Below are positions 1 through 7,909 of a stretch of DNA of 7,909 nt, one piece after another. This stretch comes from a virus. Taxonomy: Duplodnaviria; Heunggongvirae; Uroviricota; Caudoviricetes. Every line of letters starts with the position of its first letter. The stretch's first letter is position 1. Made by a program: the position numbers and the translations under genes. The stretch is from positions 1-7,909 of IMG/VR virus record IMGVR_UViG_2778261498_000001; one strand, 5' to 3'. The notes under the pieces were generated by a model that was not told the DNA's origin, did no database searches, and worked only from the letters and a program-made list of their open reading frames with translations.

Positions 1-2337
1 GGCGCGCCGTTCCGCTACAGCTTCAGCGCCCTGAAGGACCGCCATAATGCCGTTGAGGTGAACTGGATTGACCCGGACAACGGCTGGGAGACGGCGACAG
101 AGCTTGTGGAGGACACGCAGGCCATTGCCCGTTACGGTCGTAACGTCACGAAGATGGATGCCTTTGGCTGTACCAGTCGGGGGCAGGCACACCGCGCCGG
201 GCTGTGGCTGATTAAAACAGAACTGCTGGAAACGCAGACCGTGGATTTCAGCGTCGGCGCAGAAGGGCTTCGCCATGTACCGGGCGATGTTATTGAAATC
301 TGTGATGATGACTATGCCGGTATCAGCACCGGTGGTCGTGTGCTGGCGGTGAACAGCCAGACCCGGACGCTGACGCTCGACCGTGAAATCACGCTGCCAT
401 CCTCCGGTACCACGCTGATAAGCCTGGTTGACGGAAGTGGCAATCCGGTGAGTGTGGAGGTCCAGTCCGTCACCGACGGCGTGAAGGTGAAAGTGAGCCG
501 GGTTCCTGATGGCGTTGCCGAGTACAGCGTGTGGGGGCTGAAGCTGCCGACGCTGCGCCAGCGCCTGTTCCGCTGCGTGAGTATCCGTGAGAATGACGAC
601 GGCACGTATGCCATCACCGCTGTGCAGCATGTGCCGGAGAAAGAGGCCATCGTGGATAACGGGGCGCACTTTGACGGCGACCAGAGCGGCACGGTGAATG
701 GTGTCACGCCGCCAGCAGTGCAGCACCTGACCGCAGAAGTCACCGCAGACAGCGGGGAATACCAGGTGCTGGCGCGCTGGGATACGCCGAAGGTGGTGAA
801 GGGTGTGAGCTTTATGCTTCGCCTGACCGTGGCAGCGGATGACGGCAGTGAGCGGCTGGTCAGCACGGCCCGGACGACGGAAACCACATACCGATTCACG
901 CAACTGGCGCTGGGAAACTACAGGCTGACAGTCCGGGCGGTAAATGCGTGGGGGCAGCAGGGCGATCCGGCATCGGTATCGTTCCGGATTGCCGCACCTG
1001 CAGTGCCGTCGCGGATTGAGCTGACGCCGGGCTATTTTCAGATAACTGCCACGCCGCATCTTGCGGTTTATGATCCGACGGTACAGTTTGAGTTCTGGTT
1101 CTCGGAAACGCGGATTACCGATATCAGGCAGGTTGAAACCACAGCGCGCTATCTTGGCACGGCGCTGTACTGGATAGCTGCCAGTATCAATATCAGGCCG
1201 GGCCATGATTATTATTTTTACATCCGCAGTGTGAACACCGTTGGCAAATCGGCATTTGTGGAGGCTGTTGGCCAGCCGAGTGATGACGCATCCGGCTATC
1301 TGGATTTTTTCAAAGGAGAGATAGGGAAAACCCATCTGGCTCAGGAGTTGTGGACGCAGATTGATAACGGTCAGCTTGCGCCTGACCTGGCTGAAATCAG
1401 GACGTCCATTACGGGTGTCAGCAATGAAATCACGCAGACCGTCAATAAGAAACTGGAAGACCAGAGTGCAGCGATCCAGCAGATACAGAAGGTTCAGGTT
1501 GATACAAATAATAACCTGAACAGCATGTGGGCTGTGAAGCTGCAGCAGATGCAGGACGGACGCCTTTATATCGCGGGTATCGGTGCCGGTATTGAGAACA
1601 CCCCCGACGGTATGCAGAGTCAGGTGCTGCTGGCGGCAGACAGGATTGCGATGATTAATCCTGCGAATGGCAACACAAAGCCGATGTTTGTTGGTCAGGG
1701 CGATCAGATATTTATGAATGAAGTGTTCCTGAAATATCTGACGGCTCCCACCATTACCAGCGGCGGTAATCCTCCGGCATTTTCCCTGACACCGGACGGG
1801 CGGCTGACGGCAAAAAATGCCGATATCAGCGGTAACGTGAATGCGAACTCCGGGACGCTCAACAACGTCACGATTAACGAGAACTGCCGGGTTCTGGGAA
1901 AACTGTCCGCGAACCAGATTGAAGGTGATCTCGTTAAAACAGTGGGCAAAGCTTTCCCCCGTGACTCCCGTGCACCGGAACGGTGGCCATCAGGGACCAT
2001 TACCGTCAGGGTTTATGACGATCAGCCGTTTGACCGGCAAATTGTTATTCCGGCGGTGGCTTTCAGCGGTGCCAGACATGAACGGGAGAATAGCGATACT
2101 TATTCGTCATGCCGCCTGATAGTGAAGAAAAACGGGGCTGAAATTTATAACCGAACGGCTCTGGATAATACTCTGATTTACACGGGTGTTATTGATATGC
2201 CTGCAGGCAGTGGCGTAATGACACTGGAGTTTTCGGTATCAGCATGGTGGGTAAATGGCTGGTATCCCACAGCAAGTATCAGCGATTTGCTGGTTGTGGT
2301 GATGAAGAAAGCCACCGCAGGCATCAGTATCAGCTGA
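1..2337 (+). CDS. J: Host specificity (central tail fibre / tip) protein J, C-terminal ~779 codons; 5' end lies upstream of the window
   Basis: Frame 1 is open from base 1 to the TGA at 2335-2337, so the ATG at 58 is internal. The translation is long and non-repetitive and matches what I recall of lambda J, including its C-terminal receptor-recognition segment (…[13 protein letters not shown]). Immunoglobulin/fibronectin-like segments also appear, e.g. …[24 protein letters not shown]…. Confidence 0.9.
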
Positions 2338-2356
2338 ATTTTATAACCCCAATACG

Positions 2357-2383
2357 GGCGTCAGAAATGACGCCTTTTTTATT
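2357..2383 (+). terminator. Intrinsic terminator downstream of J
   Basis: Stem GGCGTCA (2357-2363), loop GAAA, stem TGACGCC (2368-2374), followed directly by TTTTTTATT. It starts 20 bp after the J stop codon. Confidence 0.65.
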
Positions 2384-2404
2384 GCAGAAAAGCGAGAGGT
2401 AATT

Positions 2405-3004
2405 ATGCGTAAATTATGTGCTGTTATTCTGTCCGCAGTAGTCTGGCTGGTTGCCGCTGGTACGCCAGCGAGCGCAGCAGAGCATCAGTCCACACTAAGC
2501 GCCGGGTATCTTCAGGCCCATACTGATATGCCAGGCAGTGATGACCTGAAGGGCATTAACGTGAAATACCGTTATGAATTTACGGACACGCTGGGGCTGG
2601 TGACGTCATTCAGTTATGCCAATGCCAAAGATGAGCAAAAAACGCATTACAGCGATACCCGCTGGCATGAAGATTCAGTGCGTAACCGCTGGTTCAGCAT
2701 GATGGCGGGGCCATCTGTACGCGTGAATGAATGGTTCAGTGCTTATGCGATGGCAGGTGTGGCTTACAGCCGTGTTTCGACGTTCTCCGGGGATTATCTC
2801 CGCGTAACTGACAACAAGGGGAAAACGCACGATGTGCTGACCGGAAGTGATGACGATCGCCACAGCAACACGTCTCTGGCGTGGGGAGCTGGCGTGCAGT
2901 TTAACCCGACCGAATCCGTGGCCATTGATATTGCTTATGAAGGCTCCGGCAGTGGCGACTGGCGCACTGACGGTTTCATCGTGGGTGTCGGTTATAAGTT
3001 CTGA
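2405..3004 (+). CDS. lom: Ail/Lom/PagC-family outer membrane beta-barrel protein (lambda Lom homologue)
   Basis: 199-aa ORF with an N-terminal signal peptide (MRKLCAVILSAVVWLVAAGTPASA/AE). Alternating hydrophobic beta-strand pattern and a C-terminal …GSGSGDWRTDGFIVGVGYKF ending in aromatic-X-Phe, as in lambda Lom. GAGAGG Shine-Dalgarno about 7 nt upstream of the ATG. Position between J and stf matches lambda. Confidence 0.9.
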   Translation: MRKLCAVILSAVVWLVAAGTPASAAEHQSTLSAGYLQAHTDMPGSDDLKGINVKYRYEFTDTLGLVTSFSYANAKDEQKTHYSDTRWHEDSVRNRWFSMMAGPSVRVNEWFSAYAMAGVAYSRVSTFSGDYLRVTDNKGKTHDVLTGSDDDRHSNTSLAWGAGVQFNPTESVAIDIAYEGSGSGDWRTDGFIVGVGYKF

Positions 3005-3031
3005 TTAGCCAGGTAACACAGTGTTATGACA

Positions 3032-3060
3032 GCCCGCCGGTTCAGGCGGGCTTTTTTGTG
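3032..3060 (+). terminator. Intrinsic terminator downstream of lom
   Basis: GCCCGCC (3032-3038), loop GGTTCA, GGCGGGC (3045-3051), then TTTTTTGTG. The T-run abuts the Shine-Dalgarno of the next gene. Confidence 0.65.
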
Positions 3061-3068
3061 GAGTGGAT

Positions 3069-5426
3069 ATGGCAGCAGTAAAAATCTCAGGTGTGCTGAA
3101 AGATGGTGCGGGAAAACCAATACAGAACTGCACTATTCAACTGAAGGCAAAGCGTAACAGCACCACGGTACTGGTGAACACGGTGGCCTCTGAAAATCCT
3201 GATGAAGCCGGGCGTTACAGTATGGACGTTGAGTATGGCCAGTACAGCGTCATCCTGCTGGTTGAAGGTTTTCCGCCTTCACATGCCGGGACCATTACCG
3301 TCTATGAAGGTTCCAGTCCGGGGACGCTGAATGATTTTCTCGGTGCCATGACGGAAGATGATGTCATGCCGGAGGCATTGCGTCGTTTTGAGGAAATGGT
3401 GGAAGAAGCGGCACGCAACGCCGAAGCCGCCTCTCAGAGCGCAGCGGCGGCAAAGAAATCCGAAACTGCAGCGGCATCATCGAAGAACGCGGCGAAAACC
3501 TCAGAAACGAATGCAGCTAACAGCGCACAGGCGGCAGCGACCTCACAGACTGCATCGGCAAACTCCGCGACAGCAGCCAAAAAATCAGAAACCAACGCGA
3601 AAAACAGCGAGACAGCCGCAAAGACGAGCGAAACCAACGCAAAGTCCAGCCAGACGGCAGCGAAGACCAGCGAAACGAATGCCAAAGCCAGTGAAACTGC
3701 GGCAAAAAACAGCCAGGTTGCAGCAGCCGAAAGCGAGAGCGCGGCAGCCGGTTCTGCGACTTCAGCAGCTGGATCAGCAACTGCTGCGGCTAACAGCCAG
3801 AAAGCTGCGAAGACGAGTGAAACTAACGCAAAGTCCAGCCAGACGGCAGCGAAGACCAGCGAAACGAATGCCAAAGCCAGCGAAACTGCGGCAAAAAACA
3901 GTCAGGATGCAGCGGCCCAAAGCGAGAGTGCCGCAGCTGGTTCTGCAAGTGCGGCAGCTAATAGCCAAAAAGCTGCAAAAACCAGTGAAACTAACGCAAA
4001 GACGAGTGAAACAAAAGCAGCAGCCAGCAAGACAGAAGCAACGTCAGCCGCAACAAGAGCAGAGAATGCAGCCCGGATTGCAGAAGATGCCGCTGATCCT
4101 GCTTCTGTCCCTCCGCTTCCTGATATCTGGCTACCCTTGAATGATTCTCTGGAAGCGATAACAGGGTATGCCCCGGGCTATAAAACAATAACCATCGGCA
4201 GTGATGAAATCACTGTACCTGTTAATGGCATATGCCAATTTAGCCGCGCTTCATCAGCAACTTATATTGATAAGTCCGGGCATATTACCGTAGCAGGTAA
4301 TAACGTTCCTCGTTTTGAAAAATATGGTTTGCTGATAGAGAATCAGCGAACAAACATGTTCGTAAATAGTTTTAATCCTGATGCGTGGAATAAAAGCGGT
4401 GGTATATCTGTAACATCATCAACAGATGAATTTGAGTTTAAATATGGACGTTTCACAGTAGGAAGTGAGATAGCAGGAACGACAACAGGGAGAAATATAT
4501 GCACAGTTGCTGGTAATAAAGGCATAGATGTGACTGGCGATGATCAATACAGTAAAGGTCCGTATGTTACCGCGTCGTTCAGGGTAAGAAGTGATCTCAA
4601 TGTTCGCGCACGTATCCGTTTTGAAGGGTATAACTCGGAAGGATACACTTTCCTTTGTGACGCCTATTTGTCATTACAGACTCATGAACTACAAATTACG
4701 GGTGGTAATGCCCAGCTATTAACAGCAAACTTTGAAATCGACCCTGGTAGTGGATGGATATATTTTCAGGCAACACTGAAATGTCTGCCAGAATGGGGAA
4801 TGGTTGGTACGCAGCTGCAAATTGCAGCCGACAGAGCAGTGGGGGCTTTTGCAACAGGTGACTGGATAGAAGTAACCACCCCGCAATTCGAGTATGGTGC
4901 CTGTGCAACTTCCTTTATCATAACGACAACAGAGCCAGCGACTCGTGCATCAGATTTATGTAAATTTCCGCTGATGAAAAATATGTATACCATGCCTTTT
5001 ACGTTCATGGTGGAAGTCCATAAAAACTGGTTTATTTCTCATAATGCTGCACCGCGAGTAATTGATACAGAAAACCATCAGTCAGGTGCTCCATTTATCA
5101 TGGGATTTGGCTCTTCTGGAACTATCAGTCAGGACGGTTATCCCTATTGTGATATAGGCGGGGCTAACCGACGTGTATATGAGTCATGCGGAGTAAGAGA
5201 TCTCGTTATGGGATTCAGGGTTAAGGCTGACGGCATGACATGCTCATTTGCAAATAAGCATATAAGCACAGAAACAAAAACAGTATGGAAATATATTCGT
5301 GAAGCTGCTGTGATTCGTATCGGGGGACAAACGACGACAGGATTACGACACCTTAATGGTCATATAAAAAACCTCCGTTTCTGGAACAGAGCATTGTCAG
5401 ATACGCAGCTTAAGGAATACGTATAA
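3069..5426 (+). CDS. stf: Mosaic side tail fibre protein: lambda Stf-like N-terminal domain, Ala/Ser/Thr-rich repeat shaft, and an unrelated lower-G+C C-terminal domain (possibly concanavalin-A/LamG-like)
   Basis: N-terminus MAAVKISGVLKDGAGKPIQNCTIQLKAKRNSTTVLVNTVASENPDEAGRYSMDVEYGQYSVILLVEGFPPSHAGTITVYEGS… matches my recollection of lambda Stf. GGAG lies 6 nt upstream of the ATG at 3069; the ORF track's GTG at 3063 is in frame but less likely. The C-terminal ~445 residues differ in composition and end in …LRHLNGHIKNLRFWNRALSDTQLKEYV, which resembles the terminal strand of LamG/ConA-like jelly-roll domains. The His-rich HxH motifs of the lambda Stf C-terminus are absent. Confidence 0.85.
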   Translation: MAAVKISGVLKDGAGKPIQNCTIQLKAKRNSTTVLVNTVASENPDEAGRYSMDVEYGQYSVILLVEGFPPSHAGTITVYEGSSPGTLNDFLGAMTEDDVMPEALRRFEEMVEEAARNAEAASQSAAAAKKSETAAASSKNAAKTSETNAANSAQAAATSQTASANSATAAKKSETNAKNSETAAKTSETNAKSSQTAAKTSETNAKASETAAKNSQVAAAESESAAAGSATSAAGSATAAANSQKAAKTSETNAKSSQTAAKTSETNAKASETAAKNSQDAAAQSESAAAGSASAAANSQKAAKTSETNAKTSETKAAASKTEATSAATRAENAARIAEDAADPASVPPLPDIWLPLNDSLEAITGYAPGYKTITIGSDEITVPVNGICQFSRASSATYIDKSGHITVAGNNVPRFEKYGLLIENQRTNMFVNSFNPDAWNKSGGISVTSSTDEFEFKYGRFTVGSEIAGTTTGRNICTVAGNKGIDVTGDDQYSKGPYVTASFRVRSDLNVRARIRFEGYNSEGYTFLCDAYLSLQTHELQITGGNAQLLTANFEIDPGSGWIYFQATLKCLPEWGMVGTQLQIAADRAVGAFATGDWIEVTTPQFEYGACATSFIITTTEPATRASDLCKFPLMKNMYTMPFTFMVEVHKNWFISHNAAPRVIDTENHQSGAPFIMGFGSSGTISQDGYPYCDIGGANRRVYESCGVRDLVMGFRVKADGMTCSFANKHISTETKTVWKYIREAAVIRIGGQTTTGLRHLNGHIKNLRFWNRALSDTQLKEYV
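3572..4010. repeat. Nested in-frame tandem repeats inside stf: 42-bp (14-aa) units inside a 189-bp (63-aa) higher-order repeat
   Basis: Peptide units AAK(T/K)SETNAK(S/A/N/T)S(Q/E)T recur many times. At DNA level, 3621-3651 (aagacgagcgaaaccaacgcaaagtccagcc) recurs at 3810-3840 (aagacgagtgaaactaacgcaaagtccagcc), an offset of exactly 189 bp, with near-identity continuing for over 120 bp. Confidence 0.8.
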
Positions 5427-5695
5427 TGCGGGATATAACATTACGATTCGATAACAGAGAACAGTTTAACGCAATTGTATATGACAGTGGCCTGTTCAGT
5501 CTTGAAGAAGAAAATGGGGTTCTTGTTGATGTTATTGGCTGCATTATTGATTACGAGGAGCCAGAAAACGAAAGATGTACAGGCATTGATCGCGGTGGTT
5601 TTTTCGTAAACATGAGGATTGTTGATGGCAGTAAAAACATATCTTCTTTAATGCCTTTCATTACGACAGATCAGCATGTAAGGACATGGGCTTAA
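5426..5695 (+). CDS. Hypothetical 89-aa acidic protein, translationally coupled to stf; function unknown (possibly fibre-associated chaperone or adaptor)
   Basis: The ATG overlaps the stf stop codon by one base (TAATG at 5424-5428). AAGGAA Shine-Dalgarno at 5412-5417, 8 nt upstream. Non-repetitive sequence with the same low G+C as its neighbours. The next gene starts 12 bp after its stop. I recognise no family. Confidence 0.55.
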   Translation: MRDITLRFDNREQFNAIVYDSGLFSLEEENGVLVDVIGCIIDYEEPENERCTGIDRGGFFVNMRIVDGSKNISSLMPFITTDQHVRTWA

Positions 5696-5707
5696 TGGAG
5701 TAAGACA

Positions 5708-6748
5708 ATGGTTACAAAAACAGTAATTCCTGATGACATCAAAACGCTAAAATCCGATGTTAGTAAACTACAAAACGATCAAGGAAGCTACGCAACAAAA
5801 TCATATGTAGACAGCAAAGATGAAACCGTTGGTGACTGGTCTGCTTCATGGTATCAGCAGGTATTGCCAACTAGCGGAGCTATATTTGGGCGAAAACTTC
5901 GCTCAACTCACAGGACGGCAGGTGTTGAGGATGCGTATTGCGAACTATACCTTAAAAAATGGATAGACAGTCCAGGGAACGCAATGGCGCGCCTTAACCT
6001 GAACGATAACGGTGAAAATATTTGCTGGGATTTTACCAACCTTTACGGCGGAACAATGATCTTCCCTGGTACTTCAGGTTATCTGAAAATGGGGAACTGT
6101 CTCATGTCGTATGGTGTGCGGGGAAGTAACGCGCTTATTAAGTTTGATAATACAGACACATTACAAATCAAATACGCTAATCATGGGTCAACCATGACAT
6201 TAAACACGCAAGGTACGGCGTATTCTGGTGTGTCGACGTTATTATGGGGAAATTCCAGTCGTCCAGTTGTTTATGAAATTAGGGATGATGGCGGGCTTTT
6301 TTTGTTTTATGCACAAAGGAACCCAGATAAAACCTATCAGCTTGAGATAAACGGGCCATGCAAGGCAACATCATTCGACCAGGTGTCGGACAGAGATCTT
6401 AAAGAAAACATTCAGGTTATTGATAATGCCACTGAGCGCATCAGATTAATGAATGGGTATACTTACCGTCTCAAGTCTAATGGTATGCCTTATGCTGGCG
6501 TTATTGCGCAAGAGGCACTTAATGCAATCCCTGAATCAGTTGGTAGCACAATAAAGTACAAGAGCGGGGACAATGGGTCTGATGGAGAAGAGGGAGAAAG
6601 ATACTATACCGTCGATTACTCAGGCGTAACGGGTTTGCTTGTTCAGGTAGCCAGAGAGTCAGACGACAGGATAACAGCACTGGAAGAAGAAAACGCAGAA
6701 TTAAGACAAAGATTATCTGCAATTGAGGCGGCGCTTGCGTCTAAATAA
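5708..6748 (+). CDS. Tail fibre / tail spike-like protein with a C-terminal intramolecular chaperone, autoproteolytic (peptidase S74-type) domain
   Basis: GGAG at 5697-5700, 7 nt upstream of the ATG. The C-terminal ~120 aa carry what I recognise as S74 hallmarks: …QV-SDRDLKENI… (Ser codon at 6386-6388; Ser/Lys dyad at the predicted self-cleavage site), …YAGVIAQEALNAIPE…, …YTVDYSGVTGLLVQVARE…, and a terminal heptad-like helix ITALEEENAELRQRLSAIEAALA. The N-terminal ~226 aa look like a short helical stretch followed by a beta-rich globular domain. Confidence 0.8.
   Translation: MVTKTVIPDDIKTLKSDVSKLQNDQGSYATKSYVDSKDETVGDWSASWYQQVLPTSGAIFGRKLRSTHRTAGVEDAYCELYLKKWIDSPGNAMARLNLNDNGENICWDFTNLYGGTMIFPGTSGYLKMGNCLMSYGVRGSNALIKFDNTDTLQIKYANHGSTMTLNTQGTAYSGVSTLLWGNSSRPVVYEIRDDGGLFLFYAQRNPDKTYQLEINGPCKATSFDQVSDRDLKENIQVIDNATERIRLMNGYTYRLKSNGMPYAGVIAQEALNAIPESVGSTIKYKSGDNGSDGEEGERYYTVDYSGVTGLLVQVARESDDRITALEEENAELRQRLSAIEAALASK
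6386..6745 (+). other. Predicted S74-type intramolecular chaperone domain, expected to be released by self-cleavage N-terminal to the Ser encoded at 6386-6388
   Basis: Motif SDRDLKENI plus the downstream conserved blocks described for the fibre-like CDS. Domain boundary is from motif position only. Confidence 0.65.
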
Positions 6749-6754
6749 TATTAA

Positions 6755-6778
6755 GGGGCCGAGCGCCCCGTTTTATTG
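6755..6778 (+). terminator. Possible weak intrinsic terminator between the fibre-like gene and the membrane-protein gene
   Basis: GGGGC (6755-6759), loop CGAGC, GCCCC (6765-6769), then GTTTTATT. The stem is short and the T-run is interrupted. Confidence 0.4.
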
Positions 6779-6790
6779 GGTAGGATGAAA

Positions 6791-7078
6791 ATGGATATAA
6801 CACCTTTCCTTCATGCGCTTTGTGCTGTGGCTGCGCAGCTACTGATTGGTCTTTTTACCGGGAACTGGGCTTACGGAGCGATAGCCGGTTGTACGTTCTT
6901 CATTGCGCGTGAACACACCCAGGCAGAATATCGCTGGATTGAAATGTTCGGGCATGGCAAGCGGATTAACATGCCGTGGTGGGGTGGTTTTGATCCACGT
7001 GCATGGGATGTGGCAAGCCTGATGGATTTTGCTGTGCCGGTGGTGGCGTGTCTGCTGATCTGGATGTTGATCCGTTAA
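6791..7078 (+). CDS. Small integral membrane protein (~95 aa, about three predicted transmembrane helices), unknown function; candidate prophage cargo gene
   Basis: Hydrophobic segments FLHALCAVAAQLLIGLFTG, WAYGAIAGCTFFIA and VASLMDFAVPVVACLLIWMLI. AGGA at 6782-6785, 5 nt upstream of the ATG at 6791; in-frame alternatives are ATG 6785 and the ORF track's TTG 6776. No lipobox. G+C is higher than the preceding two genes. It is the last gene before the att arm. Confidence 0.6.
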   Translation: MDITPFLHALCAVAAQLLIGLFTGNWAYGAIAGCTFFIAREHTQAEYRWIEMFGHGKRINMPWWGGFDPRAWDVASLMDFAVPVVACLLIWMLIR

Positions 7079-7095
7079 ATATAAAAAGTAAAAAG

Positions 7096-7127
7096 CCGCA
7101 GTAACTTGTCATGACAGGATACTGCGG
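7096..7127. other. 32-bp near-perfect palindrome 18 bp after the membrane-protein stop; terminator hairpin or protein-binding site
   Basis: CCGCAGTAACTTGTCA | TGACAGGATACTGCGG pairs at 15 of 16 positions (one A/A mismatch, one G-T wobble). Followed by TTGGCTGGTT, so no clean U-tract. Confidence 0.4.
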
Positions 7128-7341
7128 TTGGCTGGTTAACTTTCGATAGTGCGAGTATTGAATAATTTCCAGCCGTTACCGATTTTATATAACTGCAGTG
7201 GAATTATTCAACACACAGGCAAAACGGAATAAGCTGAGAAAAAAGCGTGCTTTCCCAATCTGGGGCAAATCACGTCTGAATGACACCTGAAAACAGGTGG
7301 TGGACTCAAGAAGGCTTGGAATATTCTTCTTTAATGTTATG

Positions 7342-7354
7342 TAATTCATTGATT
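7342..7354 (-). promoter_or_regulatory. IHF-consensus match in the presumptive attR P-arm
   Basis: TAATTCATTGATT fits YAANNNNTTGATW exactly (complement of WATCAANNNNTTR). It overlaps the first copy of the direct repeat TTGATTTTTCG (7349-7359). Confidence 0.4.
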
Positions 7355-7396
7355 TTTCGTGTACGATTTTAAGACATTTATTCCAAGAAAAATTTT

Positions 7397-7409
7397 TAAC
7401 TCTTTGATT
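7397..7409 (-). promoter_or_regulatory. Second IHF-consensus match in the presumptive attR P-arm
   Basis: TAACTCTTTGATT fits YAANNNNTTGATW exactly. It overlaps the second copy of TTGATTTTTCG (7404-7414), 55 bp from the first and about 20 bp from the tRNA-derived core. Confidence 0.4.
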
Positions 7410-7426
7410 TTTCGACTCTGTATCAT

Positions 7427-7488
7427 CGGTCTCGAAAACCGGAGTAGGGGCAACTCTACCGGGGGTTCAAATCCCCCTCTCTCCGCCA
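7427..7488 (+). tRNA. Partial tRNA-Ser(CGA) gene, 3' portion only (anticodon arm through CCA); presumptive att core / prophage-host junction
   Basis: CGGT-CTCGAAA-ACCGG (anticodon loop with CGA), long variable arm AGTAGGGGCAACTCTACC (class II tRNA), T-arm GGGGG-TTCAAAT-CCCCC, then acceptor 3' strand TCTCTCC-G-CCA. No complementary 5' acceptor strand (GGAGAGA) or D-arm exists upstream, so it is a fragment. It matches my recollection of the E. coli serU 3' half. Confidence 0.75.
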
Positions 7489-7770
7489 CTTTATCAATGA
7501 CTTATCTCCCGACTTCCCGCCTTGCTTTTCCTAAACAGAACAATCGTAGAATATTCTTGAAGGGTTAGATCGTCACTGTTTTCTGTTCGATACTGTGACA
7601 TTCAGCACTTGATTCGCTATGGATCTGACAGGAAGGTTTCGAGCGAAAATCTGCAATTATTCAGTCGTTTTCTTATCGGTCACCATTATTCTTTTAGACA
7701 TTGATCCTACAAAGCTGCCGCAAAGTTGGTGGTGGGAACTGAAGTTGCGTAGAGAAGGGGTCAATAATTG

Positions 7771-7809
7771 AGCAAAAAAAGGAACGCGGCCGTCAGATTA
7801 AAGCCGCGG
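7771..7809 (-). terminator. Possible intrinsic terminator on the minus strand in the flank
   Basis: On the minus strand: CGCGGC, a 12-nt loop, GCCGCG, then TTCCTTTTTTTGCTC. The stem is GC-rich with a strong T-run; the loop is long. Confidence 0.4.
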
Positions 7810-7909
7810 GACAAAGTCCATAATTTCCAAGAGTTGTTGAATTTCCCAGCTTTTTTGAAAGCCTTTGTATCATACTAACAAGTAAAAAAGGTTTAAATAC
7901 CAAAATTAA

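Follow-up and report, generated by a model that had tools for sequence, protein, structure and literature searches.

A small S74 fibre protein encoded behind stf in an E. coli lambdoid prophage: probable outer subunit of a two-part side tail fibre

Known two-part fibres and the window locus

Two-part lateral fibres are already recognised in several phages. In DT57C and DT571/2 (the branched, L-shaped LtfA-LtfB fibres) and in phiEco32 (gp14/gp15), an anchorless fibre ending in an S74 intramolecular chaperone is carried by a first fibre. For DT57C, genetics showed that LtfB depends on LtfA for its attachment (PMC4728585; PMC10713586). For the Tequintavirus IrisVonRoten (Bas32), AlphaFold-Multimer models mounted Gp24 on the proximal Gp22, which bears a protruding galectin-like domain; the small protein Gp23 was not discussed by the authors (10.1101/2024.09.12.612763). 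Here we describe a lambdoid case of this kind of fibre, found in a 7,909-nucleotide (nt) stretch of Escherichia coli prophage DNA (IMG/VR record IMGVR_UViG_2778261498_000001, positions 1 to 7,909; hereafter the window). Its subject is a 346-amino-acid (aa) protein encoded at 5708-6748 on the + strand, downstream of the side tail fibre gene stf. This protein probably forms the distal half of a two-part side tail fibre, as an exchangeable receptor-binding subunit docked on Stf.

IrisVonRoten is the closest relative. Its genes bas32_0022, bas32_0023 and bas32_0024 are homologous, gene for gene, to three consecutive genes on the + strand of the window: stf (3063-5426), encoding the 787-aa proximal side tail fibre; an 89-aa open reading frame (ORF; 5426-5695), the ATG of which overlaps the last base of the stf stop codon; and, after a 12-nt gap, the distal fibre gene (5708-6748, 346 aa plus stop). 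A GGAG Shine-Dalgarno motif, read from the sequence, lies 7 nt 5' of the distal ATG at 5708 (5697-5700, +). Gp22 shares its C-terminal ~650 aa with the window Stf (Stf aa 133-787, 45.5% identity, E 0), Gp23 (92 aa) is a homologue of the 89-aa protein (33% identity), and Gp24 starts with MVTKTVIPTDITKLK and ends in an S74 chaperone. The IrisVonRoten anchor is the N-terminus of T5 Ltf with LtfC, whereas the window Stf carries the lambda phage_tail_N domain. Gp24 has 574 aa and a T-shaped double receptor-binding domain, while the distal fibre of the window ends in just one small tip, of ~190 aa.

The other described systems are less close to the window. LtfB starts with MSRPLMPKSGAMAPYVVV... (MSRPLMPKSGAMAPYVVVNRD...), which has no similarity to the N-terminus of the window protein and lacks the peptide described below. 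There is no ~90-aa ORF between ltfA and ltfB, and LtfA has an S74 tip of its own. The window protein was not classed as a branch fibre of the LtfB/gp15 type, as the 45 N-terminal residues of that type are absent from it. The T5 pb1 tip and the K1F endosialidase have the same Ser-x4-Lys dyad, followed by a long helix that is predicted for the window protein too, and a trimerisation-dependent self-cleavage would be expected by analogy; both are, however, single chains of >1000 aa with their own particle-attachment parts, compared with a mature part of 226 aa predicted for the window protein. Lambda Stf-Tfa occupies the same genome position (after J and lom) and has the same Stf anchor, and the next gene overlaps the stf stop codon as tfa does. 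It differs in the C-terminal module of Stf, and the window has the unrelated 89-aa protein in place of Tfa, plus an extra fibre gene. Our literature search found no paper on a two-part Stf arrangement in lambdoid phages. Nor did the literature searched define the 15-residue peptide, name the ~90-aa protein as an obligatory partner or show how widely the gene cassette extends across anchors.

The distal fibre protein and its N-terminal peptide

The distal ORF is intact. Its product matched PHROG 4563 ('tail fiber protein') over the full length (1-346 of 346, E 4e-208), and in RefSeq it is labelled 'tail fiber domain-containing protein'. Pfam Peptidase_S74 (PF13884) matched aa 227-278 (window 6386-6541) and spanned positions 1-57 of the 58 in the profile (E 2.4e-12; 47.4 bits, the gathering cut-off being 22 bits). 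The domain begins with a Ser-x4-Lys dyad: Ser227 (codon TCG, 6386-6388) is followed by D-R-D-L-K-E-N-I, with Lys232 (codon 6401-6403) five residues on. In an alignment of 50 relatives, Lys232 was invariant and Ser227 was conserved in at least 90% of the sequences. In T5 pb1, Lys1269 assists in cleaving the bond between Thr1263 and Ser1264 (PMC4690869). Since the spacing of Ser227 and Lys232 equals that of the T5 pb1 dyad Ser1264/Lys1269, a cut between Val226 and Ser227 is predicted, with aa 1-226 as the mature protein; this agrees with the ~226 aa proposed in a preliminary description of the locus. The chaperone (aa 227-346, 6386-6745) makes up one third of the protein and is predicted to end in a long helix (aa 304-345, 6617-6742).

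The beta-rich tip in front of the cut (aa 37-226, 5816-6385) is the presumed receptor-binding part of the mature fibre, as judged from the AlphaFold prediction and a profile match to T4 gp34; going by T5 pb1, the receptor would be expected to be O-antigen or some other surface glycan. The stretch just before the cut, that is, the last ~50 aa of the tip (WGNSSRPVVYE...FYAQRNPD...INGP), resembled the T4 gp34 trimer repeat (4uxe, E 2.4e-8). The C-terminal half is common to the tips of many long E. coli phage fibres. The family profile also reached the S74-like end of phage S16 gp37 (6f45, E 7.7e-9) and the MyRF chaperone domain (7dc3). A phmmer search of the 346-aa protein against PDB sequences gave no match, so that S16 gp37, T4 gp34 and MyRF were reached by profile search only. 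Judged by its sequence, the protein appears to be a true self-cleaving (S74) phage fibre tip, in line with the preliminary description.

That description had also noted the lack of a lambda Stf-like anchor, and more broadly of any recognisable tail-attachment domain. The first point was borne out: the Pfam phage_tail_N anchor (PF08400) is absent from the 346-aa protein, which was therefore not taken for a self-anchored fibre of the lambda Stf type, and present in the upstream Stf (aa 5-134, 3075-3464, E 1.5e-66). The broader point held for known domains but overlooked an invariant peptide at the N-terminus. Distal fibres start with the consensus M-x-T-x-T-x-I-P-x-D-I-x-x-L-K, which in the window reads MVTKTVIPDDIKTLK (aa 1-15, 5708-5752). 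Over 16 diverse distal fibres, M1, T5, I7, D10, I11, L14 and K15 were invariant, plus one glycine, and beyond the peptide these fibres were 19-45% identical or unrelated. S74 domains were found in 14 of the 16; the other two have gp34/gp37-like tips. No profile library names the peptide. Because it is the sole element common to all distal fibres of the cassette, it is likely the attachment element, and we propose it as the docking element on the basis of the 16-fibre alignment. A predicted helix at aa 9-30 (5732-5797) overlaps its end and is probably a short trimeric coiled-coil stalk, judging from the AlphaFold secondary structure and from the N-termini of relatives, which carry variable numbers of TLKSDVS-like heptads in this region.

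Two comparisons set the peptide apart from the rest of the fibre. Prophages with ~96-97% identical Stf and an identical 89-aa protein carried a different distal allele of 227 aa. DNA homology to these prophages ended at window position 5751 or 5767 (codon 15-20) and resumed at 6774-6782; the outer tip would be replaceable by recombination just after codon 15-20. In IrisVonRoten Gp24, residues 27-75 also occur inside single-chain fibres such as DT57C LtfA, whereas residues 1-26 were found only in phages with the cassette. Such a distribution is to be expected if the peptide substitutes a non-covalent junction for a covalent one.

The three-gene cassette and proposed attachment to Stf

In the window Stf, the N-terminal anchor is followed by an Ala/Ser-rich repeat shaft and by a conserved C-terminal module (aa ~345-787, 4095-5423), which ends in ...RHLNGHIKNLRFWNRALSDTQLKEYV and includes a GTA_spike_fiber domain (aa 424-629, 4332-4949; the NCBIfam 'head spike fiber' domain). 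The C-terminal ~440 aa were 34-45% identical to IrisVonRoten Gp22, AKFV33 orf137, VogelGryff gp22 and proteins of T1-like contigs. These proximal fibres, of ~600-1070 aa, share homology from about aa 345 onward but none in front of it, where at least five kinds of N-terminus occur: the lambda Stf domain (lambdoid phages, VogelGryff), the T5 Ltf type (MAITTKIIVQQ...; IrisVonRoten, AKFV33 and a metagenomic T5-like contig), MAIYRQGQASMD... (T1-like contigs), MIYTIGSIAVSGN... (L061) and MQSLQHKRSGVAGK... (a prophage lineage with the cassette between head and tail-tube genes). The stf shaft contains internal direct repeats of ~230 nt (3603-3833 versus 3792-4001, ~80% identity; region 3603-4001), and recombination between them likely changes the shaft length. 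RefSeq splits stf of E. coli G749 (L002:3670-6027) into a pseudogene fragment and a separately annotated 'phage head spike fiber domain-containing protein'. An intact frame of 787 aa is present in both the G749 record and the window, and the Ala/Ser-rich repeats probably misled the annotation pipeline.

The gene order was constant across phages: the proximal fibre, an ORF of 88-93 aa overlapping or abutting the proximal stop codon, and the distal gene 2-12 nt further on. We surveyed 62 loci, many of them near-identical E. coli prophages (independent support: ~20 peptide variants, ~5 phage lineages). The upstream ORF carried the proximal C-terminal motif ...RHLFGH[IV]RNFRIW..LTD.Q..E.V (wider test form ...GH[IV][RK]N[LF]R.W...) at 59 of the 62 loci, and at 55 a peptide-bearing gene, encoding 227-586 aa, followed 2-12 nt after the small ORF. 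The cassette was found in lambdoid phages and prophages, in the tequintaviruses IrisVonRoten and AKFV33, in the Seuratvirus VogelGryff, in T1-like and other contigs, in Queuovirinae and in other siphophages. A reciprocal test used seven relatives of the distal fibre, picked from a protein search blind to the small ORF. A ~92-aa ORF lay immediately upstream in all seven contexts. A large upstream fibre gene was called in five of them; it was cut by the contig end in one, and in another the frame was present but uncalled. A self-anchored S74 fibre encoded directly after J (MIYTTGTIAINGN...), taken as control, had neither the small ORF nor the proximal fibre upstream. The presumed host-recognition tip is a common, swappable module and represents no novel type of system.

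In one E. coli prophage lineage (L058:2697-6080, L059, L060) the whole cassette is located between head genes (a protease-capsid fusion and a head completion gene) and those for the tail tube and tape measure, instead of behind the tail tip; its proximal fibre starts with MQSLQHKRSGVAGK.... Taken with the 'head spike fiber' domain of Stf, this placement prompts the question at which site of the particle the fibre of this lineage is attached.

The small proteins form a family of 349 clusters, all of 88-93 aa and all annotated as 'hypothetical', with ten invariant positions in the family alignment. In T5-like, Queuovirinae, T1-like and lambdoid phages the family sits invariably between two fibre genes. 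No Pfam or NCBIfam model exists for it, and no annotation was found among the records and libraries searched. A search of the 89-aa protein against 1.84 billion representatives gave six matches; two weak ones, to cadherin-like/Ig-like repeat proteins, were regarded as chance. Distal fibres without S74 are followed by their own Tfa-like gene (139 or 175 aa) yet keep the ~90-aa gene upstream (L043:581-1994, L044:3961-5512). Because the small protein is kept where the distal tip has a Tfa-like gene instead of S74, it does not serve the distal tip and would instead serve the proximal fibre or the junction. We consider it a candidate for an assembly factor or a junction adaptor. The distal slot itself accepts both chaperone strategies, S74 or a Tfa-like gene, as seen at the same two loci.

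Attachment of the distal fibre to Stf is the most likely arrangement given these comparisons. Stf would be held at the tail tip through its N-terminal domain of the lambda type, and three distal chains would trimerise, guided by the C-terminal chaperone (aa 227-346). Once the tip has folded, Ser227, activated by Lys232, would cut the Val226-Ser227 bond, and the chaperone would leave, so that the tip (aa 37-226) is exposed. Docking would involve the peptide together with the short coiled coil (aa 1-30), which would bind non-covalently on the distal end of the Stf trimer, that is, on the conserved C-terminal module. The 89-aa protein may act as an assembly chaperone of the Stf end, a module without a chaperone of its own, or as a socket retained between the two fibres. 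The outcome would be a longer, possibly dual-specificity, lateral fibre with a replaceable outer tip.

How direct the contact with Stf would be depends on the 89-aa protein. It may be a structural socket in the virion, located at the Stf tip and taking up three peptides like the T4 gp35/gp36 junction, with only slight contact between the distal fibre and Stf. Its invariable position between the fibre genes, its translational coupling to the proximal gene, its retention whatever the distal tip or chaperone type, and the size of its family with ten invariant positions all speak for such a role. The small protein is, however, also present where the proximal fibre occurs alone (L051, L053), and these loci could just as well be explained by a Tfa-like chaperone acting on the C-terminal domain of the proximal fibre, a domain that brings no chaperone itself. 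Neither fold nor sequence links the 89-aa protein to a known adaptor, and the published IrisVonRoten models place Gp24 on Gp22 with the small protein unmentioned. We regard the socket as a possibility, though a rather doubtful one.

The preliminary description had left open whether the protein mounts on the upstream fibre or is an independent receptor-binding protein; the comparative evidence favours mounting. As an independent second fibre, the protein would bind the tail tip (J or another baseplate-like protein) through its peptide, giving two separate lateral fibres. The distal gene does have its own start and Shine-Dalgarno sequence, and phages with two independent receptor-binding proteins are common. 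But the same peptide occurs despite differing tail tips (lambda J-type, T5 pb3/pb4/LtfC-type, T1-like, and the prophage with the cassette between head and tail genes), and nothing accompanies it constantly except the C-terminal module of the proximal fibre and the ~90-aa protein, always encoded immediately upstream. Self-anchored S74 fibres, moreover, have long recognisable N-terminal anchors and no small ORF. An independent fibre thus seems unlikely.

The distal gene also appears to be maintained. Megablast matches to it were found in 708 of 5426 complete E. coli genomes (431 of the 708 over at least 80% of its length), and the virulent Queuovirinae phage JenP1 encodes a 79% identical protein. 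Pairwise ratios of nonsynonymous to synonymous substitution rates (dN/dS) were 0.11-0.22 across the entire gene, its N-terminal part included, and show that purifying selection acts on it. That it is a non-functional leftover, either the 3' remnant that recombination left of a longer fibre gene or a silent, unassembled spare cassette, is very improbable: its C-terminal ~200 aa do match the ends of 1000-1500-aa fibres and broken copies exist (PhiR47_1 and the deletion loci below), but the low dN/dS extends to the N-terminus, the 346-aa length, the start codon and the spacing to the small ORF are conserved, the gene has its own family-wide N-terminal peptide, and the same architecture occurs in virulent phages with compact genomes, such as JenP1 and the T5-like phages.

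Several observations weigh against the docking of the distal fibre on Stf through its peptide, the limited number of independent lineages in the survey among them. A second type of N-terminus, MSITTQGKITAEKG, was found on 500-aa S74 distal fibres, which are preceded by an 88-aa homologue of the small protein and a 1065-aa proximal fibre with yet another anchor (L061:515-5503, L062). As such fibres exist, the peptide is not the only solution. The AlphaFold monomer of the 346-aa protein was of moderate confidence (predicted local distance difference test, pLDDT, 69.8), and Foldseek returned nothing significant for it. For the 89-aa protein, the fold prediction was a generic, uninformative small alpha/beta domain, and a relationship to T5 LtfC was rejected (hhalign probability 0.3%). 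At L051 and L053, the proximal fibre and the small ORF are followed by a membrane-protein gene, with no distal fibre. The plaque-forming phage PhiR47_1, which grows on ECOR13, has a nonsense codon in the chaperone (G6590T, GAG>TAG, E295*; L001:7528 corresponds to window 6590), and GenBank annotates two ORFs at the broken gene. The distal fibre is presumably not made in this phage and is dispensable on at least one host. At two further loci (L039, L041) the distal gene was lost by deletion, with window 5700-6623 missing, and at L049 it was disrupted. Because of these deleted, disrupted or absent copies and the PhiR47_1 nonsense codon, the distal fibre is an accessory part. Stf itself is dispensable in laboratory lambda.

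Flanking features and possible consequences for host range

The window is the right end of an E. coli lambdoid prophage, with 99.6% identity to the chromosomes of strain G749 and an ST131 strain, and it adjoins zinT. Upstream of the cassette lie the C-terminal part of J (58-2337, +) and lom (2405-3004, +). A GC-rich hairpin followed by a T-run (6755-6769, +) starts 7 nt 3' of the distal stop codon; it is terminator-like by consensus match only, and it is the probable end of the late (tail) transcription unit. Behind it, an ORF at 6776-7078 (+) encodes a predicted multi-pass membrane protein of 100 aa (phrog_1443, without a Pfam match). In lambdoid loci this gene lies behind the cassette, also in those that have lost or lack the distal fibre (L039, L041, L051, L053), and it is possibly a lysogenic-conversion or exclusion gene. 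Phage Tritos has the same arrangement of four genes, with a gene for a site-specific recombinase of the PinR type just downstream (L003:6737-7327).

From ~7427 on, the window matches the transfer RNA (tRNA)-Ser locus of nearly all E. coli genomes, and a 3' fragment of tRNA-Ser lies at 7427-7488. ARAGORN found no intact tRNA in the window, the tRNA-like sequence being this 3' fragment only. The sequence from ~7427 onward (host DNA to 7909) therefore marks the right prophage/host junction, attR, beside zinT.

The range of strains accessible to a lambdoid phage, or to a delivery particle based on lambda, is set by the side tail fibres. Should the outer tip be a separate protein attached through the peptide, host range could be changed by swapping one small gene after codon ~15, with Stf left untouched, and for the many cassette-bearing E. 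coli prophages both stf and the distal gene would have to be considered in reading host range. The widespread ~90-aa family is flagged here as a likely part of fibre assembly. Only tentatively can the peptide, the ~90-aa protein and the proximal C-terminal module be seen as a universal, lineage-independent plug and socket, with the ~90-aa family as a new virion adaptor. If that were true, any peptide-bearing distal fibre could be mounted on lambda-like, T5-like, T1-like and Queuovirinae tails, and the cassette would offer a ready-made standard for host-range reprogramming.

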